A DNA stretch of 57,991 nt from Acidobacteriota bacterium (GCA_046732795.1 JBKPNV010000113.1:1-57991); one strand, 5' to 3'; counted from the first letter of the stretch, positions 6,557 through 57,938 are shown. Notes: generated by a model not told the origin, from the sequence alone. Numbers and translations: made by a program.

Positions 6557-6696
6557 CAATCCTCCCACGCGCGCGTCAGCGTGGCCCGAGCGCGACGGCG
6601 CCAGTCTACTCGCTGTTAACCATTCACGTTTCGGGGGCGTTATTGCTGGCATAGAAGCTGATAGTCCGGCTACAGCCGGGCACTACGGAAACCGCC

Positions 6697-9129
6697 ATGA
6701 GCCCGTACGAAGACATTCGATTCGCTGCGCGGGTACTCGTGAAACGCCGCTGGATGACGAGTGCGGCCGTGGCGGCACTGGCCCTCGGAATCGCTGCCAA
6801 CAGCGCCGTCTTCACATTCGTGAACGCCATCATCGTTCGCGGCGTCCCGTTTCCCGACCCGGATCGCATCGTGACGCTGGGCACGCGAGATGCGCGCAAT
6901 GGCCAGATGGGCGTGTCGTACTACGACTTCCTCGATTGGCGCGAAGCCGCGACGAGCTTCTCGGACATGTCGCTCATGGCGCAGCCGTCGTTCAATGTCA
7001 GCGAGCCCGGAACGGCCCCGGAGCGCTACAACGGCGCGTACATCTCGACCAACACGTTTCACGTGATCGGCACCAGGGCCGTGCTGGGCCGCGGCTTCAT
7101 CGCAGAAGACGATCTTGACGGCGCACGACCGGTCGTGGTCCTCGGCTACAGCATCTGGCAATCTCGCTACGCCGGCGATCCCGACGTGCTGGGGAAAACC
7201 ATCAAAGTCAACGACCTGCTGGCGACGGTCGTGGGCGTGATGCCACCGGGCATGCAGTTCCCGCCGAACACCGATCTCTGGCTGCCTTTCGGGCAAGCAA
7301 CGATCAATCGCGGGCAGAGTCGTCAGGTGCGCAACTACGAGGTCATCGCACGACTGGCTGAGGGTGTCACCATCGCGCAGGCACGAAGCGAGATGACTAC
7401 GATCGCTGCGAGGCTCGCGCGCGATTTTCCGCGGACGAATCAGGGCATCGAGCCGACGATCGTCAACTACAACGAGCGCGCGACCCCGAACCAGATCAGG
7501 CTGGTGTTCTTTTCACTGATGGGCGCCGTCGGCTTCGTCCTGCTGATCGCCTGCAGCAATGTGGCGAATCTTCTGTTGGCGAGATCGGCCGAGCGTGCCA
7601 AGGAAGTAGGCGTTCGCCTGTCGCTCGGGGCGAGCCGCGGGAGGGTGATAGGTCAACTGCTCGTCGAAAGCGTGATGCTCTCCCTGCTCGGTGGAATCGC
7701 CGGCATCCCGCTCGCCTACGCCGGCATTCGCATCTTCGACTCCCTCACGCAGAACGTCGGCAAACCATACTGGATGGAGTTCTCGATCGACCCTATCGTT
7801 CTCGCGTTCTTCTTCACGATCTGTTTCGTGACCGGTGTTCTGTTCGGACTCGCACCCGCGCTGCACGTATCGAAGACCAGCCTCAGCGACGTGCTGAAAG
7901 AAGGCGGACGTTCCGGGTCGAGCGGGATCCGGGCGCATCGCTGGACCAGCGGACTGTTGGTCGTGCAGGTCGCCCTGACGCTGGTACTGCTCGCGGGCGC
8001 CGGGTTCATGATGCGGAGCTTCTTCGTGCTCTATCGTCTCGATCTTGGCTTCGAGACTGCGCGTCTGCTCACCATGCAGATCAGCCTCAACGATCGGAAG
8101 TACCCGACGGCGGTGGAACGAAACGCCTTCGCTCGCCGGCTCACAGAACGGCTAGCCGGGATCGGAGCGCTCGACGCGGTGACAACCGCGAGTAACTTTC
8201 CGTTGACGGGAGGATGGGGCCTCGAGCTGACGATTGACGGACGCACGGATCCGAATGCCCGGCGCCCGCTTGTGACGCTGGTGAGCGTGGGAGCGAATTA
8301 CTTCGACACAGTCGGGATTCGTCTGCTGCGTGGTCGCGACTTCACAGCGTCAGACGAGACTCCCGGGCGCGGCGGAGTGATCGTGAATCAGCGCTTCGCC
8401 GACATGTATTTCAAGGGCGAGGACCCTCTCGGCCGCCAGATCAGCGTGACCGAACAGACACCGAACGGCATCGATCTGCGATCGCAGACCATCATAGGCG
8501 TCTCCACGATCGTGCGTCAGCGCGACATCCAGAACATCGAGCCCGATGCGGTTGTCTATGTCCCGTACTTCTCCGGCGCAAATCAGGGGCGCAATGTCGC
8601 CGTCATCGTTCGCACCTCGGGTGCCATGACAGCTGCCGTTCCGCTGATTCGGCAGGCCGTGCTCGAACTCGACGCCGACATCCCGGTATTCAACGTGCGG
8701 ACAATGGACGAACTGCTGGCGCAACGGCGGTGGCAGTATCGCATCTTCGGCGGCATGTTCGCGGTCTTCGCGGGAATCGCGCTGTTGCTGGCCGCGGTCG
8801 GACTTTACGCCGTGATGGCGTATTCAGTGACACAACGCACACAGGAAATTGGCGTGCGCATGGTGCTCGGCGCGCCGCCACGCGAGGTCGTCTGGCTGTT
8901 TCTGCGTCGCGGCTTCGTGCTGGTGGCAATCGGTTGGACGATCGGGATGAGCGGGGCATTCGGGGTCGGGCGTTTGCTGCAAAGCATACTCGTGCAATCC
9001 ACCGGCCGGGACGTGCCGGTGCTGCTAGCGATCTCGTTGCTCATGATCGTCGTGGCCGCGGCGGCGTGCGTGTGGCCCGCCCGGCGCGCCACCCGACTCA
9101 ATCCAGTCGCGGCCCTGCGCTACGAATAG
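6697..9129 (+). CDS. ADOP-family duplicated permease (MacB-like, two FtsX domains)
   Basis: 810 aa. The N-terminus DIRFAARVLVKRRWMTSAAVAALALGIAANSAVF is typical of the family. There are two MacB periplasmic plus FtsX 4-TM halves and it ends ...RRATRLNPVAALRYE. Confidence 0.9.
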   Translation: MSPYEDIRFAARVLVKRRWMTSAAVAALALGIAANSAVFTFVNAIIVRGVPFPDPDRIVTLGTRDARNGQMGVSYYDFLDWREAATSFSDMSLMAQPSFNVSEPGTAPERYNGAYISTNTFHVIGTRAVLGRGFIAEDDLDGARPVVVLGYSIWQSRYAGDPDVLGKTIKVNDLLATVVGVMPPGMQFPPNTDLWLPFGQATINRGQSRQVRNYEVIARLAEGVTIAQARSEMTTIAARLARDFPRTNQGIEPTIVNYNERATPNQIRLVFFSLMGAVGFVLLIACSNVANLLLARSAERAKEVGVRLSLGASRGRVIGQLLVESVMLSLLGGIAGIPLAYAGIRIFDSLTQNVGKPYWMEFSIDPIVLAFFFTICFVTGVLFGLAPALHVSKTSLSDVLKEGGRSGSSGIRAHRWTSGLLVVQVALTLVLLAGAGFMMRSFFVLYRLDLGFETARLLTMQISLNDRKYPTAVERNAFARRLTERLAGIGALDAVTTASNFPLTGGWGLELTIDGRTDPNARRPLVTLVSVGANYFDTVGIRLLRGRDFTASDETPGRGGVIVNQRFADMYFKGEDPLGRQISVTEQTPNGIDLRSQTIIGVSTIVRQRDIQNIEPDAVVYVPYFSGANQGRNVAVIVRTSGAMTAAVPLIRQAVLELDADIPVFNVRTMDELLAQRRWQYRIFGGMFAVFAGIALLLAAVGLYAVMAYSVTQRTQEIGVRMVLGAPPREVVWLFLRRGFVLVAIGWTIGMSGAFGVGRLLQSILVQSTGRDVPVLLAISLLMIVVAAAACVWPARRATRLNPVAALRYE

Positions 9130-9261
9130 CCCGGCCTCGCAAGACGCGCGTACTTTGCCGCGTTCAACCCATCGCTCGTTTTGCCAAGTCCCGGTCGGTC
9201 ACTGCTGATCTCTTGGGAAATCCGCGCGGCAGGGATCTCGCAACGACGATGCTAAGATGCC

Positions 9262-9834
9262 ATGGGACGCCGAACAGAAATGCCCGAGGGTACTCACTTG
9301 GTTACTGCCGAGGAATTCGAACGATTCCCGCACGACCCTCCATACAATCGCTTCGAGCTCGTGGAAGGCCGGGTCATCCCCTTGAGCCCGGTCAGTTTCG
9401 AACACGGTAGGGTTGTGATGCGACTAGGTTTGCTCCTGGGGCGCCATTTGGAGCAGCACCCCGTAGGCACGATCGGTGCTGACGTCGGCTTCAAGCTCGC
9501 ATCCAATCCGGACACGGTGCGAGGACCCGACATCGCCTTCCTACGGAAAGAGCGAGTGCCGACGGCGCGGGGGCGCGGGTTCTACACCGGACCGCCCGAT
9601 CTGGCCATCGAGGTCTTGTCGCCCGACGATCGGCCGGGGGAAGTACGAGCCAAGACAGAGGAATACCTGGCCACGGGTGTACCCGTCGTAGTCATCGTCG
9701 ATCCTGAGGAGAGGACGGCGACGACGTTTCGACCAGGCTTCGCACCGGTTGCGTTGGCTGCGCCAAACGACGTCCTCGATTTGAGCGACGCCATCACCGG
9801 CTTCCGCTGTCCCCTCCACGAAATCTTCCGATAG
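9262..9834 (+). CDS. Uma2 family (DUF820) PD-(D/E)xK endonuclease
   Basis: FELVEGRVIPLSP...GPDIAF...PPDLAIEVLSP...K..EY...GV pattern. Confidence 0.85.
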   Translation: MGRRTEMPEGTHLVTAEEFERFPHDPPYNRFELVEGRVIPLSPVSFEHGRVVMRLGLLLGRHLEQHPVGTIGADVGFKLASNPDTVRGPDIAFLRKERVPTARGRGFYTGPPDLAIEVLSPDDRPGEVRAKTEEYLATGVPVVVIVDPEERTATTFRPGFAPVALAAPNDVLDLSDAITGFRCPLHEIFR

Positions 9835-11696: not shown

Positions 11697-12332
11697 GTGG
11701 ATATGCCGTCGTTCAATCACCTCGTGACCAACGAGCAGGATCTTCGAGCGGTCATTGGCGTCCCGAGCCCTCGCTCGGTGTTGAAGGAGCGCCGTGCGCT
11801 CGACGAGCACACACGTGCGTTCATCGCGCGCTCGCCGTTTCTTCTGATGGCCACATCAGATGCGAACGGACGATGTGATGTGTCGCCCAAGGGCGACGGC
11901 CCGGGTTTCGTTCAGGTGCTCGACGACCAGCGAATCGTGATTCCCGAGCGCCCAGGCAACAAGCGCCTCGACGGCATGCTCAACATCCTGGTGAATCCGC
12001 ATGTCGGCCTGATCTTCCTGGTGCCCGGCCGGCAGGAGACACTCCGGGCCAATGGCAGGGCGTGGATTACGCGCGATCCTCAATTGCTCGAACCCTGTGT
12101 CGCGCACGGGAAAGTTCCGCTGGTCGCCATCGCGGTCGAAATCGAGCAGTGCTTCCTGCATTGCCCGAAAGCGTTCGTTCGTTCACGTCTCTGGCACACG
12201 GACGCCTGGCCTGCCGCTGATTCGCTGCCGTCGATGGCATGCGTGCTGTTCGATCAGATCAAACCAGCCGACGCGACGCTCGAGGACTACGAGCGCTCGG
12301 TCGAGGAAGGCATCACCAAGGGCCTGTACTAG
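11697..12332 (+). CDS. pyridoxamine 5-phosphate oxidase (PPOX) family FMN-binding protein, MSMEG_1061-like
   Basis: FLLMATSDANGRCDVSPKGDGPGFV...ERPGNKRLDGMLNIL.NP.VGLIFLVPG..ETLR.NG. Confidence 0.85.
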   Translation: MDMPSFNHLVTNEQDLRAVIGVPSPRSVLKERRALDEHTRAFIARSPFLLMATSDANGRCDVSPKGDGPGFVQVLDDQRIVIPERPGNKRLDGMLNILVNPHVGLIFLVPGRQETLRANGRAWITRDPQLLEPCVAHGKVPLVAIAVEIEQCFLHCPKAFVRSRLWHTDAWPAADSLPSMACVLFDQIKPADATLEDYERSVEEGITKGLY

Positions 12333-13759
12333 TGAGAGGTCTTCTTGCTGCTCTGCTGCTGTTCACCGCGGCGGCATGCGCGGCGCGCGTACCGCCGCCA
12401 GCGCCATCGCTGCCGCCAGCCCTCGAATTCGACGCCGGTGTCGATGGCCTGATTCGACGTGGCTGCTATCGATGCCTGGAGAAGGCGTTCGAGCAGGCGC
12501 AACAGTCGGGCGCTCGAGGGCAGGCATTCGAAGCGGCTGCACTCCTCACGCTCCGGTCCAAAGAACTGGGCCTGCCGAGCGATCGCTGGCTCGATCGGAC
12601 GCGCGCGCTCGCCGGCGCAGACGCGTCGCTCACCGCATATGTGGACATGGTCGATGTGGTTCCACCGGATCGCCTCAGCGAAAACCGCGACGCGCTCTTC
12701 GACATCGGCCGCCGCAATCGCGCGAAAGGCTCGATCGAAGCCTGGCGTGAGCGCCTTCGCGACGGCCCCGGCTCCGACGCGTTTCGCAGTTATCTCGACG
12801 TCTCGCTCATCTGTGCATTCGGAACACTCAAGGAAACGCCCGAGAGCTTCTCGGGCCCGGTCGCTCCGGCCGCCACCACTCCGCTCTTTCAGTATGCGCT
12901 CGGCGCCTGTGACGTGACTCACCGCGCTCGACTGATCGCGCTGCGCGCGTCAGAGCCGGACTTCGCCGACGCTGACTATCCGTTGGGCCGCTACGCCCTC
13001 GAAGATCCCGTGAATCCCGATGCCGAGGAGAGCCTGCGGCGATTCGAGTCCGCATCGCACGCGTTTCCCCGATCGCCCGCGATCGCAACGCGCATCGGCA
13101 ACGTGTATCGAATCTGGGAGGATTGGCAACCGGCGCTCGCCGCCTACGACGCGGCACTTGGCGTCGCGCCGCATCATCCCGAGGCGACCATCGGCCGCGC
13201 CATCAGCCTCTCGCATCTCGAGCGATCCGACGAAGCGATCGAGACCACGACACGCTTGATCGATGGAGGGCAATGGCTGCTCGGCGAAGCGTACTACTGG
13301 CGCGGCTGGAACCAGCTGCGGCTGAACAACTTTCAGCTGGCGCGAGCAGACGTCGATCGAGCGCGGACGCTGATGTCGAATGCCGCTGTCATGGTCCTGT
13401 CCGGTGCGATCGAGTGGCGGCTCGGTCGCCTCGACAGCGCCGAGAAGGATTTCGAAGGCGCGCTGGCCATCGATCTCGGTGAGTGCGAGGCCGCCTTCGA
13501 TCTCGGGGTCGTCCGCGATCAACTGGGGAAGCTCGTCGAAGCGCTCGCGGCCTTCAAGCAGGCGGGGCAATGCTACGACCTCTCGATCACCCTACGACGC
13601 GAGGCAATCGGCAAGATTCGAAGCGGTAACGGCAGCGAAAGTCTGAAAGCGCGCGACGCGGCGCGTCACGAGCGGACCCTCGTCGATCTGGTCGAACGCC
13701 GTCGCGAGGTCACACGCGTCATCGACGCAATCGAAAAGGCTGGACCGTCATTTCAGTGA
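12332..13759 (+). CDS. TPR-repeat lipoprotein
   Basis: The GTG at 12332 overlaps the PPOX stop. The lipobox-like N-terminus is VRGLLAALLLFTAAAC. TPR-like helical repeats are present (AYDAALGVAPHHPEATIGRAISL..., GEAYYWRGWN...). Confidence 0.7.
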   Translation: MRGLLAALLLFTAAACAARVPPPAPSLPPALEFDAGVDGLIRRGCYRCLEKAFEQAQQSGARGQAFEAAALLTLRSKELGLPSDRWLDRTRALAGADASLTAYVDMVDVVPPDRLSENRDALFDIGRRNRAKGSIEAWRERLRDGPGSDAFRSYLDVSLICAFGTLKETPESFSGPVAPAATTPLFQYALGACDVTHRARLIALRASEPDFADADYPLGRYALEDPVNPDAEESLRRFESASHAFPRSPAIATRIGNVYRIWEDWQPALAAYDAALGVAPHHPEATIGRAISLSHLERSDEAIETTTRLIDGGQWLLGEAYYWRGWNQLRLNNFQLARADVDRARTLMSNAAVMVLSGAIEWRLGRLDSAEKDFEGALAIDLGECEAAFDLGVVRDQLGKLVEALAAFKQAGQCYDLSITLRREAIGKIRSGNGSESLKARDAARHERTLVDLVERRREVTRVIDAIEKAGPSFQ

Positions 13760-50140: not shown

Positions 50141-50236
50141 ACTCCGAGTCAGTCCCGAGTCCCGAGTCCCGAATCCCGAGTCCCGAGTCCCGAATCCCGG
50201 GTCCCGAGCCCCCAAGTCCCGAGTCCCGAATCCCGG
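50141..50236. repeat. 8-nt tandem repeat array (GAGTCCCG / GAATCCCG variants, about 12 units) in a divergent promoter region
   Basis: actccgagtcagtcccgagtcccgagtcccgaatcccgagtcccgagtcccgaatcccgggtcccgagcccccaagtcccgagtcccgaatcccgg. Confidence 0.85.
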
Positions 50237-50248
50237 ATAATTTGAGTT

Positions 50249-51703
50249 GTGCACGGTACTACAGCTCCAGCATTCGTCGCAGCGCTCGCTGCCGGCATCC
50301 GTGACGCAGGCGGCCGCGCACTCATTGTCGGCGGCTGGGTGCGTGACCGTCTCATGAACCGGATCCCGGATCCCGAATCCCGAGTCCCGAGTCCCGAGCC
50401 CCGAGGTCCGAGTCCCGAGCCCCGAGCCCCGGACTCCAAGGACATCGACATGGAAGTCTTTGGCATTCCGGTCGAGCAACTTCCCGGTCTGCTCGCATCG
50501 TTCGGGCGTGTGGAGGCGGTCGGCCAGAGCTTCGCGGTCTACAAAGTGGTGGGCGACGACGGCATCGCGATCGATGTCGCCATTCCGAGGCGTGAGTCGA
50601 AGCAGGGCCGCGGCCACAAGGGCTTCGAAGTACGAGGGGATCCGTTCATGTCCATGGAGGACGCCGCGCGCCGGCGCGACTTCACGATCAACGCAATTTC
50701 GTGGGATCCGCTGACCGGCGAGTACGTCGATCCGGTCGATGGACGTAACGATTTGCGACGTCATCTGCTTCGAGCCGTCGACGCACACACATTTGGCGAC
50801 GACAGTCTTCGCGCGCTGCGCGCCGTGCAGTTCGCCGCGCGCTTCGAGTTCGCGCTGGAGGAAAAGACAGCGGAGCTCTGCCGGCGCATCCGGCTCGACG
50901 ATCTGCCGGCCGAACGGATCTGGGGTGAGCTCGAGAAGCTGCTCCTGCAGGCAATGAAGCCGTCAATCGGCTTTCAACTCGCGCGCGACCTCGGGATCAT
51001 CGAACAGGTCCTCCCAGAGATGATGCCGCTCATCGGCTGCGAGCAGGAACCGGAGTGGCATCCCGAAGGCGACGTCTGGATCCACACGCTGATGGTGATC
51101 GATCGCGCACGCGCACTGAACGGCGATCTCGATCGCCCGAGGCTCCTCACCCTGATGCTGGGAGCCGTCTGTCACGACCTCGGGAAGCCGGCCACGACGG
51201 CCTTCATCGACGGACGCATTCGATCGCTGGACCACGAGCAGGCGGGTGTCGAGCCCACGCTCAGCCTCCTCGATCGACTGAACGTGCACACCATCGATGG
51301 CTTCGACGCACGCAGTCAGGTGGTGGGACTGGTGGCGCATCACCTCAAACCCGGCATGCTTCACAAGGCAGGCAACGTCGGAGATGGCGCCTTCCGTCGC
51401 CTGGCACAGAAAGTCGACCTGGAGCTGCTCGCACGTCTCGCGCGCGCAGACTGCCTCGGGCGCACAGGAACGTTCGATTGCTCGGCGATGGAGTGGTTCC
51501 TGGCGCGAGCCCGCGCGCTCGGTGTCGAGCATCGCCCGCCATCCCCACTTCTCCTGGGGCGTCATCTGCTCGAAATGGGTCTCGAGCCGGGACCGCGAGT
51601 CGGACAAGTTCTCAAGCAGGTGTACGAGAAGCAGCTCGATGGTGAGATCACCAGTCTCGAGGAAGGCGTGCAGGAAGCCAGGCGAATTCTCGACCTGAGT
51701 TAA
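50249..51703 (+). CDS. cca: CCA-adding tRNA nucleotidyltransferase / poly(A) polymerase family with C-terminal HD domain
   Basis: ALIVGGWVRDRLM...KDIDMEVFG (class II NTase motif), RRDFTINA, HPEGDVW.HT and VCHDLGKP (HD). Confidence 0.85.
   Translation: MHGTTAPAFVAALAAGIRDAGGRALIVGGWVRDRLMNRIPDPESRVPSPEPRGPSPEPRAPDSKDIDMEVFGIPVEQLPGLLASFGRVEAVGQSFAVYKVVGDDGIAIDVAIPRRESKQGRGHKGFEVRGDPFMSMEDAARRRDFTINAISWDPLTGEYVDPVDGRNDLRRHLLRAVDAHTFGDDSLRALRAVQFAARFEFALEEKTAELCRRIRLDDLPAERIWGELEKLLLQAMKPSIGFQLARDLGIIEQVLPEMMPLIGCEQEPEWHPEGDVWIHTLMVIDRARALNGDLDRPRLLTLMLGAVCHDLGKPATTAFIDGRIRSLDHEQAGVEPTLSLLDRLNVHTIDGFDARSQVVGLVAHHLKPGMLHKAGNVGDGAFRRLAQKVDLELLARLARADCLGRTGTFDCSAMEWFLARARALGVEHRPPSPLLLGRHLLEMGLEPGPRVGQVLKQVYEKQLDGEITSLEEGVQEARRILDLS
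50361..50437. repeat. in-frame copy of the 8-nt repeat array inside the cca-family CDS
   Basis: ggatcccggatcccgaatcccgagtcccgagtcccgagccccgaggtccgagtcccgagccccgagccccggactcc encodes IPDPESRVPSPEPRGPSPEPRAPDS. Confidence 0.85.
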
Positions 51704-51783
51704 TATCCTTTCGCCTCCGCACGACCAAGCTGGTTCTCTTCCTTCGTAGTGTCGTACTACGCGGATTCGCGGGAGACGTCGCG

Positions 51784-54231
51784 ATGAACCCGAAGCTGCG
51801 CAGCGCCTCGCCAGCCCTGGCTTTTCTGATAGTTCTGCTGCTCCCGATGATTGTTCTGCGCGTGGCCACCCCGCAGCCGGCGCCGTCACAACCACTCGAT
51901 CCCGGCTTCCACGCCGGTGCACAAAAATTGAGTCCATCGGCGCGCGCCGGTCGCGAAATCTGGTTCAAGGCCACAGCCGGAAACGCCCGCTTTCACACCT
52001 ACGTGTTTCAACAGCGTCTGGGCGTCATGATTGATTGGTATCGCGTCCTGCGCTCGGAGGCGCGCGGCGACCGCTTCAAGACGTGGGGCATCATCAACGA
52101 TCCGGATTGCTGTACGCCCGGGTCGCCCAACTGCCCGCGAAAGCGCCTCGATGACACATACGGCTTCGACTATTGCCCTGGAGACGACGAACTGCTCTCG
52201 TTCGTCGGCAAATCTGGGTATCGCGATCCCGCCTGCAACTTCGAGGACGCACCCGTCAGCCGCAACGACCCGCACGGTCCGAAGGATCAACGTCAGAGCC
52301 CGTGTGATCTGGCGTTCGGCACATCAACTGGTGTCCTTGGTTTCAGAAAATTCCCCAACCCTCGCTACGATCCGGAACGCTGGCGATCGTTGAACGGCTC
52401 GCTCGCGACGTGGACCGGTTTCACGCGTCCGCTCACAGAGAACGGTCCCGATTCACGGACGAGTCACTTGATCGACGGGTCGATCGAACCGCCGTTTCTC
52501 ATCGGAATGAGTTGCGGCGCGTGCCACATCGCGTTCACTCCGCTCAAACCACCGGCCGACCCGGAGCATCCCGCCTGGGAGAACATCGACGGCCTGGTCG
52601 GCAATCAATACGCCCGCATCTCGGAGATCTTCGTGTCCGGAATGTCGCCGAGCAGCATCGAATGGCAGACGTTTTCGCACGCGCGCCCGGGAACCGTCGA
52701 TACCTCCGGGATCCCGAACGATTCAGTCAGCAACCCAGGGACGATGAACGCAATCATGAATCTGGCCCGGCGCCCGACCTTCTCCGAGGAGGTGATCAAG
52801 TGGCGGCCGGTCACGTCGTGCGCCGCCGGCGTGGATGAGCGCGCCTGCTGGTGCGAGCCTGGGCGCGAACGAAAGTGCTGGGAGAGATCACAGAAGACCG
52901 AACCCGTGCACCACATCCTCAAGGGCGCTGAAGACAGCATCGGCGCCCTCGAAGCCATTCAACGGGTCTACTTCAACATCGGATCATGTTCGGAGCAGTG
53001 CTGGGTCAACCACATCACCGATCTCCGGCAGGCCGACCCCAAGCATCGCGGGTTCGGACAGACGCCATTCGACGTCGGGCAATGCCGCCGCGACTGCGAT
53101 AACTTCCGCGCCATCGAAGATCGCCTGCAGAACATCGCGGATTTCTTCATGACGAGCCGGCCTGTCGACCTCTACCGCGCGCGAGGGCTTGCCTCGCAGG
53201 GGGCGCTCATCGCCCAACTCGATCGCGAATTCGGCGCCAATGCGGTGGCCCGCGGCAAAGCCGTCTTCGCCGAAACATGCGCTCGCTGTCATTCAAGTCA
53301 GCCGCCACCCTGGACCGCGGCAACCGACTTTCACGCCACTGTCGAAGGCCAGCCCGATCTTCGCGTGGATTTCCTCAGCAATGAAAGGCCGGTTCCGGTC
53401 ACCCAGGTTGGGACGTCGAGATCGCGCGCGCTCCACTCGAATCACATGAAAGGGCACGTGTGGGATGAGTACGGCTCCGAGACACTGCGCGCGAGACCGC
53501 CGGTCGACGGAATCCAGGAACCGCACGACGGCGGCCGTGGCTACTATCGCCCAATCTCCCTGCTCAGCGTCTGGGCGTTCGCGCCGTTCATGCACAACAA
53601 CGCGATCGGACCGGAAGTGTGCGGCAAGCCGACCGACCCGCTCGAGCTGTATCGCAGCCCCTACGTCGTGCGTGGCACGTGGATGCGGATGCCGAATCCG
53701 CCGTCATGCGTCACCTTCGATCCGAGCGTCGAGGGACGATACCGGCTGTTCAAGGCGTCCATCGAAGAGCTGCTCAACCCGGCGTCCCGGCTGCCGAAGA
53801 TTACGCTCGTCGACGAGCCCATCGTCATCGACGGCCCGATATTCCCTGGACGAGCCGAGGGTTTCGAGCTGCAGATCCCGGCCGGGATTCCCGCCGCGGT
53901 TCCTGCCAATCTCCGCCACAAAGAGTTCATTGGCGACCTGGTCCTCGTGAAGACGAACGTCGAAGCGCTGCGGACCAAATACGCGGCTCGTGGCGCCGAC
54001 GAAGTGAATCGGATCGTCACCACGCTGCAGGACATCCTGAAACAACTGACCGCTGGCATGGTCACAAGCGCCGACTCACTGGTGTCGGCAATCGGTCGCG
54101 ACCACTTGCCGTTCATCCAACAGATGTACAGCAACAGCACCGTTGAAATCGAGAACGACGGTCATACGTTTGGAAGCTTGCTGTCAGCCGCGGACAAGAA
54201 GGCACTCACGGCCTTCCTCGCAACGTTGTAA
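51784..54231 (+). CDS. large secreted protein with two c-type haem-binding motifs
   Basis: Signal peptide MNPKLRSASPALAFLIVLLLPMIVL. CxxCH motifs at CGACH (about aa 245) and CARCH (about aa 500). 815 aa, and I did not recognise it as a standard di-haem peroxidase. Confidence 0.7.
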   Translation: MNPKLRSASPALAFLIVLLLPMIVLRVATPQPAPSQPLDPGFHAGAQKLSPSARAGREIWFKATAGNARFHTYVFQQRLGVMIDWYRVLRSEARGDRFKTWGIINDPDCCTPGSPNCPRKRLDDTYGFDYCPGDDELLSFVGKSGYRDPACNFEDAPVSRNDPHGPKDQRQSPCDLAFGTSTGVLGFRKFPNPRYDPERWRSLNGSLATWTGFTRPLTENGPDSRTSHLIDGSIEPPFLIGMSCGACHIAFTPLKPPADPEHPAWENIDGLVGNQYARISEIFVSGMSPSSIEWQTFSHARPGTVDTSGIPNDSVSNPGTMNAIMNLARRPTFSEEVIKWRPVTSCAAGVDERACWCEPGRERKCWERSQKTEPVHHILKGAEDSIGALEAIQRVYFNIGSCSEQCWVNHITDLRQADPKHRGFGQTPFDVGQCRRDCDNFRAIEDRLQNIADFFMTSRPVDLYRARGLASQGALIAQLDREFGANAVARGKAVFAETCARCHSSQPPPWTAATDFHATVEGQPDLRVDFLSNERPVPVTQVGTSRSRALHSNHMKGHVWDEYGSETLRARPPVDGIQEPHDGGRGYYRPISLLSVWAFAPFMHNNAIGPEVCGKPTDPLELYRSPYVVRGTWMRMPNPPSCVTFDPSVEGRYRLFKASIEELLNPASRLPKITLVDEPIVIDGPIFPGRAEGFELQIPAGIPAAVPANLRHKEFIGDLVLVKTNVEALRTKYAARGADEVNRIVTTLQDILKQLTAGMVTSADSLVSAIGRDHLPFIQQMYSNSTVEIENDGHTFGSLLSAADKKALTAFLATL

Positions 54232-54242
54232 GGAGGGGCGCC

Positions 54243-55100
54243 GTGAACGCGAAGTTTATCGTTGCCTTCCTTCTCGTCATCGTCGTCGCCGTCGGGATCT
54301 GGTGGTGGAACCGCCCGCAGCGAGTCGACCCGCGGTTCGCCAACGCCGGGACCGACTTCGCGCGGCTGGAGCACGAGTATCCACTGTCGATTGATGAACG
54401 CGAGTCGCTGACGCCGGGACGACTTGCCGGCTTTTCTCAGGAAGAAGTCGACCAGATCTATGGGCGCCTGACGGCTGGCCCTATTCCGGATGGTGTGTAC
54501 GACGGTGATCTATTTTTTCCGCGGGGCACCGACAGCGAGACGCGGCTGGCCGAGATCATCGAGGGGCGCCTGCAGGCGCGCATCGCCAACCTGGGAGTGC
54601 GGAAAACAGAAAGTCTCGGGCGTCTGCTGTGGAAAGGAAAGGTCTTCTATCGTGATCAGCGGCTGCTGCGCAATCGCATCGAAGATTTGTCGGCGCTTGC
54701 GCCGATCACCGGCGGAAACACCGACGGCATTGAAAAGCTGACCGTGAATGGACGTGACACCTTTCTGCTCTTTCCCGCGAGGCTGTATTGTGGTCAAAGC
54801 CTGCTCGATGGCCGGCGCGAGTCCGTGATCATCGACTACGCGTTCACGGACGAGCTCCCCGGTTATCGCGCCGCTCCTGATGACCTCGGCGGGCGAAACG
54901 GATTCCGGATTCGCGATGAGATCCGGATGGTACGACCCGGTTTCTACCTCGGCCGGGCGTACCTGAAGGGTGTGTTTGGATTGAACTTCACCTTGATCAA
55001 CCACGCTGTCGAAGCCGCGGGCCGTGCGGAGTTCCAGGCCGGTCGCGTGACGGAGGACTGCTGGACCGGCGTAGCGGCAGGTCTTCAGACCCGTCGTTGA
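54243..55100 (+). CDS. membrane-anchored hypothetical protein
   Basis: N-terminal TM MNAKFIVAFLLVIVVAVGIWWW followed by a soluble domain (..LYCGQSLLDGRRESVIIDY...IRDEIRMVRPGFYLGRAY). No family assigned. Confidence 0.6.
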   Translation: MNAKFIVAFLLVIVVAVGIWWWNRPQRVDPRFANAGTDFARLEHEYPLSIDERESLTPGRLAGFSQEEVDQIYGRLTAGPIPDGVYDGDLFFPRGTDSETRLAEIIEGRLQARIANLGVRKTESLGRLLWKGKVFYRDQRLLRNRIEDLSALAPITGGNTDGIEKLTVNGRDTFLLFPARLYCGQSLLDGRRESVIIDYAFTDELPGYRAAPDDLGGRNGFRIRDEIRMVRPGFYLGRAYLKGVFGLNFTLINHAVEAAGRAEFQAGRVTEDCWTGVAAGLQTRR

Positions 55101-55144
55101 ATTGCGATCGACTTATCAACGCAGGTCTGAAGAGCCGCCTCTAC
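55071..55144. repeat. two inverted REP-like hairpins, variant B
   Basis: gtagcggcaGGTCttcaGACCc (55071-55092) and ggtctgaagagccgcctctac (55124-55144) flank the 54243/55159 gene junction. Confidence 0.6.
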
Positions 55145-55158
55145 TCGATTGTGGGACT

Positions 55159-56514
55159 GTGTCGCATCAGGAAGCGCTGACGGTCATCGCCAGAATCAAG
55201 CCCGGACAGGTGGAGACCGTCAAGGGCATCCTCGGCACCATCGCCGAGCATCGCGGGCGTTGGGACATCGTGCCGTTCGCGACACTCGCGAACGTGCACT
55301 TCGCCCGGTTCGTCGTGTTCGACGAAACCGCCGATCTCGACGGCAATCCACTCCCGGCGCAGCTCGCGATGATGACGAATGTCGACGCACCACTCGACGC
55401 GCATCTGCGCGACCTCACGACGACGTGCGGTGATGGTCTCGACCACGTGTTCGATCAGTGCGAAGACTATCCGGCAGCGGCAGGACGCACACCGGCCGCG
55501 CGCCTTGCGTTTCTGCGTCGGCACCACAAGCGGGCGAGAGCCTTTTACGTCAACCGGCAGGGACGCACGGTTCAGCAGATCGTTCGCGAAGAACAGTTGC
55601 GCCGGGCCATCAACGACTATCTCGATGCCGCTGACCTGACGAGGCACTCCCCGGAAATGATTCGCGGAGCCATCGTCGCATTCGTTGCAGGACGGAGCGA
55701 TCTCAGATGGGCGCTCTACCCTCCGAAACCGCCATTGACGATGTGGCGCGTCAAAGAAATCGTCAACCTCGTGGTCTATCCGCTCGCGGCCCTCGTGCTC
55801 CTGCCGGTGCTGTTAGTGGTATCACCGGTCCTCGTCCTCCTCCTCCGGGCACATGAGAGGCGCGACATCCCGGATACGTCTCGCGCTCCGGCGGAGACGG
55901 TAAGACGCCTCCGCGCCGATGAGGATTTCTGGATGCAGAACCAGGTGACTGCCGCCGGTCTCTTCAAGCCAGGCTGGTTCCGCTTCCTGTTGGCCACGGC
56001 GATCCTCCAGTTGACCGATTACGCCGTCCGCCACATCTACAATCGCGGCTCGTTATCAGGCCTCAGCTCGATTCACTTCGCGCGATGGGTGCCGCTCGAC
56101 GGCCGGCGCCGGCTGTTCTTCTCGAGCAACTACGACGGCAGCCTCGAGAGCTACATGGACGACTTCATCGACAAGGCGGCGTGGGGCCTCAACGCAATCT
56201 TCAGCAGCGGCCACGGCTTCCCGCGAACCTGCTTCCTGTTTTGTGGAGGGATCACGGACGAAAAGGCCTACAAGCGATTCCTGCCGACGCGGCAAGTCCA
56301 GACGTCCGTCTGGTACAGTGCCTATCCGCACTTGACGACGAAGAACATCGCGAACAACGCGGCAATTCGACAAGGGTTGTCAGGTCACATGAGCGCTGAC
56401 GAGACGAGAACATGGCTGCGCCGTTTCGGCGTCGGGAACCAATTGCCCGAATCGGGCTTCATCGCGCGACTCCTTGATCGGATCCGTTGGGACAGGCTGT
56501 GCCACTGCAAGTAG
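55159..56514 (+). CDS. hypothetical membrane protein with duplicated HFAR(F/W) alpha+beta-like modules
   Basis: I prefer the GTG at 55159 (VSHQEALTVIARIKPG...) because the TTG at 55102 would translate REP DNA. VHFARFVVFD lies in the N-half and IHFARWVPLD in the C-half. A central hydrophobic hairpin is LVVYPLAALVLLPVLLVVSPVLVLLL. Confidence 0.65.
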   Translation: MSHQEALTVIARIKPGQVETVKGILGTIAEHRGRWDIVPFATLANVHFARFVVFDETADLDGNPLPAQLAMMTNVDAPLDAHLRDLTTTCGDGLDHVFDQCEDYPAAAGRTPAARLAFLRRHHKRARAFYVNRQGRTVQQIVREEQLRRAINDYLDAADLTRHSPEMIRGAIVAFVAGRSDLRWALYPPKPPLTMWRVKEIVNLVVYPLAALVLLPVLLVVSPVLVLLLRAHERRDIPDTSRAPAETVRRLRADEDFWMQNQVTAAGLFKPGWFRFLLATAILQLTDYAVRHIYNRGSLSGLSSIHFARWVPLDGRRRLFFSSNYDGSLESYMDDFIDKAAWGLNAIFSSGHGFPRTCFLFCGGITDEKAYKRFLPTRQVQTSVWYSAYPHLTTKNIANNAAIRQGLSGHMSADETRTWLRRFGVGNQLPESGFIARLLDRIRWDRLCHCK

Positions 56515-57938
56515 AGGACATTCAAGGAATCCTCCTCTACGGATATGGCCAACTGCGGCATGCGTGTTTTCTGCTGCTCGGCATCACCGATAGAGAGGCA
56601 GCCCGGAAGTGGCTCGGCACGCTCGATATTCGGAATGCGGACTTCAAACCGGATGATGTCGATCGCTGCCTGAACATCGCGTTCACCGCGACCGGCCTGA
56701 GACAACTGGGCCTGTCCGCGGAGCTGATCGGCGAGTTCTCCACGGAGTTTCGCGAGGGCGTAGCCGGCACCGAACACCGTCAACGCCTCCTCGGTGATAC
56801 CGGCGAGAGCAGTCCGGACAGATGGCGGTGGGGCGGGTTCCGCAATCCCGAACCGCACGTGCTGCTCATGCTTTATGGCCGGGACGAGACCGCACTTTCG
56901 GTGTTGCTGAGCGAACAGCGACTCCGGCTTACGAGCTTCGGCCTTCAGCTGATTGAGCAACTCGACACCACGTGGCTGCCGGAGGACAAGGAGCACTTCG
57001 GGTTTCGCGACGGTGTGAGCCAGACCGGCATCGAAGGCGTGCACACGCGAACCTCTCCGGGGAACACCGTCGCGGCCGGGGAGTTCGTCCTGGGCTATCC
57101 AAACGCGCACGGACAATACACGGATCGCCCGCTCGTGAGCCGTGACCGAGATCCACAGGCACTGTTGCCTCACGCTCCTGACGATCAGCGACTGCACGAT
57201 CTGGGCATGAACGGAAGCTACCTGGTGTTCCGTCAGCTCAGTCAGGACGTGCTCGCCTTCTGGCGGTGCTGCGACGAGAAAACGCGACGCCGTGACGGCG
57301 CGTCAGAGCCGGAGGCCCGGAAGCGGCTCGCGTCGAAGATGGTGGGGCGTTGGCCGAGCGGCACGCCGCTCGTTCGATCGCCGGAGAAAGACGATCCGGC
57401 TTTCAGCCGCGACAACGATTTTCTGTATTACGGATCGGGCGACGCCCACGGGTTGAAGTGTCCGATTGGCGCGCATATTCGGCGGACCAATCCTCGTGAC
57501 TCGCTCGAGCCCGATCCCGGTTCCGACAGATCGATCGAGGTCGGCAAACGCCATCGGATCCTCAGGCGCGGGCGGGTCTACGGCGCCCCGATCGCACGCT
57601 CGATGCAGGCTGACGACATTCTTGCCGCGGGCGATACCGCGGGAGAGCGCGGATTACATTTCCTCTGTTTCAACACGCACATCGGACGGCAGTTCGAGTT
57701 CATTCAGCACAGCTGGGTCAATAATCCAGGCTTCGATGGTCTCTACGATGACGATGATCCGTTGATCGGTGATCGCGGCTGCGGGCATGGCAAGCCGGGA
57801 GGCACCTTCACGATTCAGGCCGACCCGATTCGCACGCGCGTAACAGGACTGCCTCGCTTCGTGCAAGTCAGAGGAGCAGGCTATTTTTTCTTACCGGGCC
57901 TTCGCGCGCTGCGATTCCTGGCAGCCCCAGGCAAATAA
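56487..57938 (+). CDS. DyP-type haem peroxidase
   Basis: DIQGILLYGY N-terminus, GxxDG motif EHFGFRDGVSQ, proximal His region CPIGAHIRRTNPRD, and HFLCFN...FEFIQ..W.N. It overlaps the previous gene by 28 nt. Confidence 0.9.
   Translation: MGQAVPLQVEDIQGILLYGYGQLRHACFLLLGITDREAARKWLGTLDIRNADFKPDDVDRCLNIAFTATGLRQLGLSAELIGEFSTEFREGVAGTEHRQRLLGDTGESSPDRWRWGGFRNPEPHVLLMLYGRDETALSVLLSEQRLRLTSFGLQLIEQLDTTWLPEDKEHFGFRDGVSQTGIEGVHTRTSPGNTVAAGEFVLGYPNAHGQYTDRPLVSRDRDPQALLPHAPDDQRLHDLGMNGSYLVFRQLSQDVLAFWRCCDEKTRRRDGASEPEARKRLASKMVGRWPSGTPLVRSPEKDDPAFSRDNDFLYYGSGDAHGLKCPIGAHIRRTNPRDSLEPDPGSDRSIEVGKRHRILRRGRVYGAPIARSMQADDILAAGDTAGERGLHFLCFNTHIGRQFEFIQHSWVNNPGFDGLYDDDDPLIGDRGCGHGKPGGTFTIQADPIRTRVTGLPRFVQVRGAGYFFLPGLRALRFLAAPGK

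Follow-up and report, generated by a model that had tools for sequence, protein, structure and literature searches.

A DyP peroxidase locus of an Acidobacteriota bacterium is a composite of two separately conserved gene pairs with a possible link to lipid oxygenation

Introduction

DyP peroxidases stand beside dedicated partner genes in two described settings, EfeUOB with its class A, Tat-exported enzyme and the encapsulin systems with their class B enzyme. Here we analyse another locus in which a DyP has dedicated partners, a run of four genes (g1, g2, g3 and the DyP gene, g4) at positions 51784-57938 of a 57,991-nucleotide stretch of DNA from an Acidobacteriota bacterium (GCA_046732795.1, JBKPNV010000113.1:1-57991), which in its full length we call the window. 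To our knowledge, the natural substrates and roles of DyPs, especially of the bacterial class C/V enzymes, remain unknown, and we know of no partner protein described for DrDyP of Deinococcus radiodurans (8re3), DyP2 of Amycolatopsis (4g2c) or AnaPX (5c2i). At neutral pH DrDyP, the closest solved relative of the DyP of the window, shows no activity with H2O2; its physiological substrate is given as unknown by its authors, who suggest that its activity may be governed by other proteins (PMC10820274). Unlike the EfeUOB and encapsulin enzymes, the DyP of the window is of class V and has no Tat or Sec signal. The initial annotation, made from the sequence of the window, had found neither of the two partner sets here, and this holds more widely: there is no EfeU, EfeO or encapsulin gene in the cluster or in the related loci listed, and the DyP is flanked by g3 upstream and an unrelated convergent gene downstream, with no encapsulin shell gene.

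The first gene of the locus, g1, brings in a second group of known enzymes. Among di-haem cytochromes, RoxA and the oleate-diol synthase PA2077/PA2078 (FadCcp) of P. aeruginosa have been placed in an oxygenase branch apart from the classical peroxidases (PMC4496055). The characterised members of this branch oxygenate C=C bonds in hydrophobic compounds, which are polyisoprene for RoxA and oleate with its hydroperoxide for PA2077/PA2078; their haem-attachment motifs lie 199 residues apart in RoxA and 235-245 residues apart in PA2078/PA2077, a 'MauG motif', PYFHNGS, has been named in them, and H641 is an axial ligand in RoxA (PMC4496055). In the P. aeruginosa operon, two di-haem enzymes that are paralogues of each other stand without a calycin, ABM-like or DyP partner. 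For the rubber-degrading systems, we know of no dedicated membrane-tethered barrel partner like g2.

A third point of comparison comes from the neighbours that g3 and DyP have in other genomes. In cyanobacteria, a cyclooxygenase-like dioxygenase and a catalase-related hydroperoxide lyase are an established oxylipin pair (Brash et al. 2014, cited in PMC9579011), and the enzyme types of this linoleate 10S-dioxygenase and 10S-hydroperoxide lyase also stand beside g2-g3-DyP in most other phyla. Both types are absent from the window, we know of no DyP, g3 or g2 partner described for the published pair, and the dioxygenase homologues beside g3-DyP differ from the cyanobacterial enzyme in being closest to plant alpha-dioxygenases.

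We find that the locus is a composite of two separately conserved pairs, module A (g1 and g2) and module B (g3 and DyP), and that g3 is a previously undescribed membrane partner of DyP; within the limited library that we searched for DyP neighbourhoods and oxylipin partners, no paper describing a DyP-g3 cluster was found. Tentatively, we read the two modules as arms of one lipid-processing system, and we weigh this reading against its rivals in the Discussion.

Results

The initial annotation had described four same-strand, tightly packed genes and treated them as one module. The packing is as described: the ORF (open reading frame) listing of the window gives four plus-strand ORFs in the interval, with 11 nt between g1 and g2, 1 or 58 nt between g2 and g3 depending on the g3 start chosen, and an overlap of 28 or 16 nt between g3 and DyP depending on the DyP start chosen (Table 1). 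The window extends only 53 nt past the end of DyP; since the next gene after DyP in a close relative (L001) is convergent, we take the cluster to be complete at the window end.

The idea that the four genes are inherited as one unit does not survive a comparison of neighbourhoods. We collected 80 genomic loci seeded on g3, from Acidobacteriota, Binatia, Rokubacteria, Gammaproteobacteria, Mycobacteria, Cyanobacteria, Streptomyces and other Actinomycetota, Chloroflexota and Dormibacterota, and find g3 followed by a same-strand DyP in 79 of them, across at least nine phyla, the sole exception ending at a contig edge. A second set of 80 metagenomic loci was seeded on g1, with neighbours grouped by strict clustering; here the long form of g2 (47-90% identical) lies directly downstream of g1 in 74 loci, and of the six others four end at a contig edge and two (L104, L129) have room for it. 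The combination of both pairs is rare in either set. Only three g1-seeded loci continue into g3-DyP after g1-g2, namely L088 (the window's own lineage), L099 and L164, and only three g3-seeded loci contain g1, two of them acidobacterial and the third a Lamprocystis metagenome-assembled genome (MAG) with an incomplete g1 on the other strand. The neighbourhood check seeded on g3 that had been proposed for this locus therefore divides: DyP and g2 do co-occur with g3, in 79/80 and 67/80 loci, and g1 does not (3/80).

The g2 homologues of the g3-seeded loci are 24-33% identical and nearly always lie directly upstream of g3. In nine Streptomyces loci (L018-L021, L024, L027, L039, L047, L060) g2 and g3 form a single fusion ORF of 577-703 aa, for example at 3549-5297 of L019, and this natural fusion leads us to conclude that the short form of g2 and g3 work together. 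At the other end of g3, its stop codon and the DyP start overlap in the window and in L081, L084 and L087. In L084 the usual place of g2, directly upstream of g3, is taken by a group II intron-type reverse transcriptase (RVT_1 and GIIM domains, 8234-9454).

Beyond g2, module B has a recurrent set of further partners, which we counted by tblastn with annotated neighbour proteins within 10 kb of g3-DyP, in the 80 g3-seeded loci and also over 85 loci in total. These are a PF03098 protein (64/80; 66/85), a DUF4267-like protein of about 125 aa (57/80; 58/85), a protein of about 300-340 aa (50/80; 52/85) and DoxX (13/80; 15/85). The one PF03098 protein tested, that of L085, is homologous over its full length to the fatty-acid alpha-dioxygenases of plants (4kvj, E 3e-120; 4hhr, E 1e-112). 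For the 300-340-aa partner, the profile finds the catalase-related allene oxide synthase of coral (1u5u, E 1e-5) and a catalase-related protein of mycobacteria (3e4w, E 5e-4), and we refer to this partner as catalase-related. Both of these partners are without a signal in most loci. The catalase-related protein has a signal or lipobox-like N-terminus in L081 (8464-8530) and L006 and a weaker hydrophobic one in L007, and in two Ktedonobacteria loci (L034/L085) the alpha-dioxygenase-like protein begins with a hydrophobic helix; the compartments of the partners thus vary between lineages. The DUF4267-like small protein belongs to the cluster in Actinomycetota and Chloroflexota. DoxX follows DyP in Proteobacteria, Rokubacteria, Mycobacteria, Cyanobacteria and one acidobacterial locus (L081 12791-13222; L084 12853-13233; L087 12794-13243; L086 12778-13230). 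L086, which is the same locus as L003, is an acidobacterial MAG in which g1 is called as pieces of 115 and 583 aa (6663-9120) and DyP as a 350-aa piece (11729-12781); the breaks may come from frameshifts or from errors of assembly, the homologues being otherwise intact.

The two modules can also be seen to part company among close relatives of the window. Two metagenomic loci, L082 and L083, have a g3 94% identical to that of the window and keep the upstream synteny of Pro_dh, M20 peptidase and CCA-adding enzyme, and in them the CCA gene is followed directly by g3. Alignment of the CCA-g3 spacer of L082 (9949-10000) with both window junctions gives a clean indel of about 3.4 kb that comprises exactly g1 and g2, with its left junction near 51750 and its right one at about 55150. 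The four-gene order itself is kept in the window, in L001/L088 (g3 84% identical) and in L003 (g3 67% identical), and because these more distant relatives keep it, loss of g1 and g2 in the L082 lineage is the simpler reading. Together with loci that carry g3-DyP, with or without DoxX, and nothing else of the set, L082 and L083 indicate that module B does not need module A.

Module A has connections of its own. The usual continuation of g1-g2 is a 732-aa protein (x732) with two CxxCH motifs and no Pfam match, followed by one or two di-haem proteins of about 500 aa of the RoxA-like_Cyt-c family (PF21419; L089-L167; examples downstream of g2 are L100 3979-6177 and L098 15273-16778); neither x732 nor the 500-aa RoxA-like_Cyt-c proteins are present in the window. 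The order is g1-g2-x732-g3-DyP-catalase-related in L099 and g1-g2-x732-catalase-related-g3-DyP in L164, with g3 proteins only 37% identical to that of the window, and it is g1-g2-catalase-related in L137 and L141. None of these four loci has a PF03098 gene, and the divergent loci look like cases of non-orthologous replacement of the oxygenase.

Table 1. Positions of the genes, motifs and residues of the locus, counted from the first nucleotide of the window
Feature	Position	Strand	Remarks
g1, 815-aa exported di-haem cytochrome c (predicted), module A	51784..54231	+	ORF, motifs, weak family matches
g1 first haem-attachment motif CGACH, residues 244-248	52513..52527	+	
g1 second haem-attachment motif CARCH, residues 499-503	53278..53292	+	
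g1 WAFAPFMHNN, residues 597-606	53572..53601	+	putatively corresponds to PYFHNGS, the 'MauG motif' in RoxA and PA2077/PA2078
g1 Gly793-His794, 21 residues before the C-terminus	54160..54165	+	putative counterpart of RoxA axial H641 (of 662)
g2, 285-aa membrane-tethered calycin/FABP-like (fatty-acid-binding-protein-like) barrel protein (predicted), long exported form, module A	54243..55100	+	
g2 uncleaved hydrophobic N-terminal anchor, residues 1-25	54243..54317	+	
g2-g3 spacer, 58 nt	55101..55158	.	contains the right junction of the g1+g2 indel (~3.4 kb) seen against L082
g3, 451-aa duplicated ABM-like protein (predicted) with central hydrophobic hairpin, module B	55159..56514	+	
g3 first HFARF, residues 47-51	55297..55311	+	beta-strand of module 1 (model strand 46-54)
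g3 hydrophobic segment, residues 198-233 (36 residues)	55750..55857	+	about 29 apolar residues
g3 second HFARW, residues 306-310	56074..56088	+	equivalent beta-strand of module 2
DyP (g4), class V (C/D-type)	56487..57938	+	483 aa from TTG 56487; overlaps g3 end
DyP GxxDG fingerprint FGFRDG, distal Asp175	56997..57014	+	aligned to DrDyP D189
DyP proximal haem ligand His330	57474..57476	+	aligned to DrDyP H324
DyP distal Arg360	57564-57566	+	aligned to DrDyP R348

We now turn to the proteins themselves, beginning with module B. The longest reading of g3 is 55102-56514 (470 aa from the first TTG); all homologues are 451-452 aa long, from which we take GTG 55159 as the true start. The duplication that the initial annotation had seen in g3, two modules each with an HFAR(F/W) motif, is borne out by a comparison of the N-terminal and C-terminal halves: hhalign finds them homologous with a probability of 98.4% (E 4e-15) and lines up their HFAR motifs. 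H47, A49 and R50 of the first motif and H306, A308 and W310 of the second are invariant in 21 diverse homologues. By sequence, g3 is without a Pfam, NCBIfam or PDB match, whether one searches with the window protein, the 21 diverse members or their profile; the more than 2400 homologues from a first search are all named hypothetical, and an exact look-up of a Mycobacterium g3 protein returned no record.

The AlphaFold2 model of g3 (predicted local distance difference test score, pLDDT, 70; predicted template-modelling score, pTM, 0.72) shows two ferredoxin-like alpha+beta modules. Its best Foldseek match is the ABM/SchA-like WhiE-ORFI (9lmn, E 8e-4); the single-chain putative monooxygenases 3mcs and 3f44 are aligned over about 400 columns, and single ABM monooxygenase domains (probability 0.8-0.99), TcmI and IsdI are also matched. 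On this medium-confidence model, g3 would be a tandem ABM-like protein, of dimeric alpha+beta barrel type, with no Pfam ABM match. The two modules are separated by the hydrophobic segment, modelled as one long helix (194-235), in which the central P216 and R230 are invariant and both flanks carry basic residues. The invariant proline, the basic flanks, the roughly 29 apolar residues and the alignment with single chains of double-ABM type suggest that the segment is probably a re-entrant or monotopic anchor with a hairpin topology and both modules in the cytoplasm.

Two further observations concern g3. Its HFAR motif together with 'SNYDGSLESYMDDF' resembles the DyP stretch 'GLHFLCF...QFEFIQ' and raised the suspicion of a diverged DyP paralogue; hhalign of the two family alignments is null and no DyP occurs in the top 50 listed fold matches, so this idea was dropped. 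Separately, g3 has an extra C-terminal tail of about 28 residues, FGxGNxLPxxG..A..L..I.W..LC..C, mostly ending in Cys (window 56431-56511, residues ~425-451), which is present in Acidobacteriota, Proteobacteria, Mycobacteria and L081 and missing in Actinomycetota and Chloroflexota.

The DyP, for which GTG 56499 is an alternative start, aligns over its full length with DrDyP (8re3, E 3e-51, residues 6-479) and also matches the ancestral D-type enzyme 7anv (E 7e-39), fungal D-type DyPs and DyP2 (4g2c) (E about 1e-28), and AnaPX (5c2i). The TIGR01413 model is matched just below its cutoff of 100.5 (90.7 bits, E 1e-25), and the Pfam DyP domains are also matched below cutoff. The GxxDG Asp, the proximal His and the distal Arg align with the pocket residues listed for DrDyP (PMC10820274), and F171, G172, F173, D175, His330 and Arg360 are invariant in 16 homologues. 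Judged by these residues, g4 is a canonical class V DyP with predicted peroxidase activity. The protein begins directly at the conserved core, so that no leader or export signal is present, in agreement with the cytoplasm-type enzyme that had been called at the outset.

On the side of module A, g1 has the 815 aa, the hydrophobic N-terminal leader (residues 5-33) and the two CxxCH motifs 255 residues apart (244 to 499) that the initial annotation had reported. This spacing had also been noted as far wider than the roughly 140 residues of bacterial di-haem cytochrome c peroxidases, which are also shorter (about 350 aa); with branch values of 199, 235 and 245 residues, 255 is typical of the RoxA/FadCcp branch. 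Both haem motifs (C244, C247 and H248 of CGACH; CARCH) are invariant across 29 homologues. The protein matches only the haem-motif parts of cytochrome c models, with the Pfam matches centred at CARCH. A profile built from the 29 relatives has four points in common with RoxA (4b2n), in the same order: the first CxxCH (CGACH aligning with RoxA C191xxCH195), the second CxxCH, WAxAP(F/Y)xHN (the region of WAFAPFMHNN aligned to RoxA 497-521) and the C-terminal GH..F...L (the segment of Gly793-His794 aligned to RoxA 636-662). At the third of these points W597 is invariant and A600, P601, N605 and N606 are at least 90% conserved, as are G793 and H794 at the fourth. Around the RoxA active-site residues W302 (the inter-haem Trp) and F317 (the distal Phe), the alignment of g1 with RoxA is patchy.

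A wide CxxCH pair, a MauG-like motif and a C-terminal axial His, the three marks of the RoxA/FadCcp branch, can all be recognised in g1. As for membership of the named families, g1 scores 19.2, 17.2 and 14.3 bits against the RoxA, RoxB and RoxC equivalogs (cutoffs 1000, 900 and 900) and 25.5 bits against NF040606 (cutoff 150). All are below cutoff, and at 14-25 bits against 900-1000 g1 falls outside the Rox equivalog families. The RoxC model has a length of 812, close to that of g1, and g1 differs from RoxA in the spacing (255 vs 199). NF040606 is matched by all 29 relatives, RoxC by 17, RoxB by 16 and RoxA by 10, with best E-values from 2e-4 to 1e-7 against the Rox models. A classical bacterial di-haem cytochrome c peroxidase is ruled out by the length of 815 aa, the spacing and the NF040606 score below cutoff. 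We assign g1, on these sequence features, to an uncharacterised new family inside the RoxA/FadCcp-like oxygenase branch; an exhaustive search finds 1254 representatives of its relatives in a 50% library, many of them 800-1000 aa long.

The closest functional comparison is with PA2077/PA2078, which share with g1 a predicted export, a similar CxxCH spacing (245/235 vs 255), a MauG-like motif of the PYFHNGS type, a C-terminal axial His and the grouping with RoxA (published values, PMC4496055). This likeness is set by published features of the two enzymes, and g1 is about 180 residues longer (815 vs 624-634 aa). PA2077/PA2078 act on hydrophobic, unsaturated periplasmic substrates, and we propose that g1 may do so as well.

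The second protein of module A, g2, starts at a GTG with GGAGG 6 nt upstream. It was annotated as a 285-aa, N-terminally anchored protein of unnamed family, and we agree: there is one hydrophobic helix, and no Pfam, NCBIfam or PDB family is matched by sequence. In the AlphaFold2 model (pLDDT 76) the N-terminal helix is followed by a beta-barrel whose best Foldseek match is the uncharacterised Tcur_1030 (4mve, E 7e-4, template-modelling (TM) score on target 0.66), with NanoLuc and the retinoic-acid-binding CRABP2 further down (TM 0.4-0.45). On this model, again of medium confidence, the fold class would be that of a calycin/FABP-like barrel, with ligand binding as a prediction. The GXWXG/DUF4334 lipocalin-like Pfam families, considered as candidates for g2, were rejected, as 0/20 diverse members match them even at E<=1.

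The g2 family has thousands of members, most of them about 146 aa long and without a signal; relative to this short form, which is soluble and cytoplasmic in most phyla, the window g2 has the added anchor and two insertions. Among 72 intact N-termini of g2 proteins beside g1, 58 have a lipobox-like signal, 13 an uncleaved anchor of the window type and the remaining one a lipobox-like LLPGC. Because g1-paired g2 proteins carry such export or anchor signals, the barrel would lie outside the cytoplasm, facing the periplasm. With the g1 leader and the g2 signals on one side and signal-less g3 and DyP on the other, haem proteins are very probably found on both sides of the membrane, as the initial annotation had it.

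Promoter and terminator scans give no site in the intergenic spacers of the cluster, including the 58-nt spacer between g2 and g3, where there is no promoter-like or terminator-like site. Nearly all of the sequencing runs found for the cluster are soil or rhizosphere DNA metagenomes, and a single one is a metatranscriptome. This rhizosphere metatranscriptome contains short contigs, 90-99% identical and scattered over window positions 54913-57503, densest on g3 and DyP, and from this identity we conclude that close relatives of the cluster are transcribed in soil at a low level; in this single run no piece crosses any gene junction of the cluster.

Two results stand apart from the above. None of the four proteins matches a PADLOC anti-phage defence model. 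Upstream of the cluster the window has two arrays of the heptanucleotide AGTCCCG (a rotation of TCCCGAG), at 50151-50235 and 50359-50431, with about 12 and 9 copies. The M20-peptidase and CCA-adding-enzyme genes diverge from each other, and one array sits between them; the other falls within the 5' portion of the CCA ORF and codes there for peptide repeats of the PSPEPRG/A type.

Discussion

The reading that we favour, to which we give a little less than an even chance, is that modules A and B are two arms of a system that oxygenates lipids and processes the hydroperoxides, and in which the oxygenase can be swapped. Module A would act outside the cytoplasmic membrane, with g1 as the putative oxygenase of a hydrophobic, unsaturated lipid-type substrate and g2, at the outer membrane face, binding or presenting the lipid substrate or product. 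Module B would act at the cytoplasmic face, where g3, probably held in the membrane by its hydrophobic hairpin and made together with DyP through the overlapping stop and start codons, may contact DyP and recruit it to the membrane; there DyP would consume or convert the lipid hydroperoxide, or else a product formed from that hydroperoxide. The arms would be connected by a membrane-soluble intermediate and not by electron transfer. We infer the nature of the substrate, the roles of the proteins, the contact between g3 and DyP and the sharing of one pathway by A and B. The swappable oxygenase in particular is suggested by the facts that both modules share the g2 family, that module B accompanies dioxygenase and catalase-related genes and that the same partners are sometimes found on g1-g2. 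The fatty-acid- and retinoid-binding barrels that g2 resembles in its modelled fold, and the hydrophobic C=C substrates of the branch to which g1 belongs, also speak for the lipid reading.

Several points weigh against this two-arm lipid system. We know of no DyP that acts on fatty-acid hydroperoxides. The window g2 would face the opposite side of the membrane from g3, and the short g2 that is fused to g3 elsewhere is cytoplasmic. The fold calls for g2 and g3 come from medium-confidence models (pLDDT 76 and 70) with Foldseek E-values near 1e-3, and no metatranscriptome piece crosses a gene junction as a sign of co-transcription. The whole window, when checked, has no alpha-dioxygenase-like, catalase-related, DUF4267-like or DoxX gene. 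As for the pairing of the modules, about 75/80 g1-g2 pairs are not near g3-DyP and continue into other di-haem cytochromes, L082 and L083 lack g1 and g2 and have g3-DyP, and several loci carry g3-DyP, or g3-DyP-DoxX, alone.

A more far-reaching proposal, which we think rather doubtful, is that class V bacterial DyPs do not work alone as dye or lignin peroxidases and, with an obligate g3, form the hydroperoxide end of a widespread multi-haem lipid-oxygenation system of oxylipin type in which the oxygenase is interchangeable. The oxygenase of this wider system would be either a cytoplasmic alpha-dioxygenase-like enzyme or an exported RoxA/FadCcp-like one, and the form of the calycin barrel would fit the compartment.

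The main rival is that the two modules are fortuitous neighbours, unrelated operons with no common substrate or pathway. It draws on the rarity of the combination (3/80 in each seeded set), on the clean removal of g1 and g2 by the 3.4-kb indel in L082/L083 with g3-DyP left intact, and on the habit of module A to run on into other di-haem cytochromes. What makes us consider it unlikely is that module A is joined with module B or with a catalase-related gene in at least three arrangements in divergent lineages (window/L003, L099 and L164, L137/L141), where by a rough estimate chance would give about 0.03 such cases per 80 loci. The g2 family is moreover common to both modules, the arrangement of the window persists down to 67% g3 identity, and the 58-nt spacer between g2 and g3 has no predicted terminator.

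It is also conceivable, at a level of probability that we would call low, that g2 and g3 are haem- or quinone-handling accessories, either for an IsdG-like loading, storage or degradation of haem, which the conserved histidines of the HFAR motifs would bind, or for feeding quinol to DyP; in the quinol variant g3, with DoxX elsewhere, would turn DyP into a quinol peroxidase that defends against peroxide. The fold matches of g3 do include IsdI and ABM monooxygenases, an invariant His sits at the same place in both of its modules, the cluster partners in other genomes are all haem proteins, some calycin barrels bind haem, and DoxX follows DyP in 13/80 g3-seeded loci (15/85). Yet there is no sequence-level link of g3 to IsdG/MhuD or to any ABM Pfam model, and DoxX is absent from the lineage of the window. 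A haem chaperone would leave unexplained both an exported g2 next to a c-type cytochrome, in which the maturation system sees to haem attachment, and the specific tie to fatty-acid dioxygenase homologues.

The initial annotation had joined the haem proteins on the two sides of the membrane into a trans-membrane redox or peroxide module, in which g2 and g3 would connect the periplasmic di-haem protein electrically to DyP. The predicted location of the haem proteins, the membrane association of g2 and g3 and the tight packing of the genes are all in keeping with such a conduit, and we nevertheless judge it very improbable. Neither of the two supposed links looks like a conduit: g2 is a single anchor helix (a lipid anchor in most homologues) with a predicted calycin-type barrel that has no cofactor motif, and the tandem ABM-like g3 has one hairpin-like apolar segment of about 29 residues and no motif set of the haem b or Fe-S type. 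In addition, the two halves of the chain are inherited separately, and g2 is soluble and cytoplasmic in most phyla.

Secondary-metabolite tailoring of an aromatic polyketide or quinone, with g3 as an ABM-type oxygenase or cyclase and DyP in oxidative coupling or decolourising, would suit the best g3 folds (polyketide ABM/SchA-like and cyclase proteins WhiE-ORFI, TcmI and FasU), the frequency of the g3 family in Streptomyces and the action of DyPs on anthraquinones (PMC10820274), but we find it scarcely credible, as the neighbourhoods listed contain no polyketide synthase, non-ribosomal peptide synthetase or other core biosynthetic gene, the same compact haem-enzyme set recurs from Acidobacteriota to Cyanobacteria, and the partner dioxygenase is a fatty-acid alpha-dioxygenase homologue.

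Whatever the pathway, the neighbourhoods provide DyP with a concrete partner, g3, and a second frequent one, g2, and so put the question of what DyPs do into a testable context. That context is also a biochemical one, in the form of the alpha-dioxygenase and catalase-related homologues, or RoxA/FadCcp-like di-haem oxygenases, that lie nearby. Since some carriers, species of Mycolicibacterium and Streptomyces, are cultured, a hypothesis on the role of DyP is experimentally accessible. At the same time g2 and g3 define two large families, of thousands of members each, for which there is no Pfam or NCBIfam model. If the reading of modules A and B as a lipid oxygenation and hydroperoxide-processing system is true, bacterial oxylipin-type metabolism would extend to abundant soil phyla such as the Acidobacteriota.

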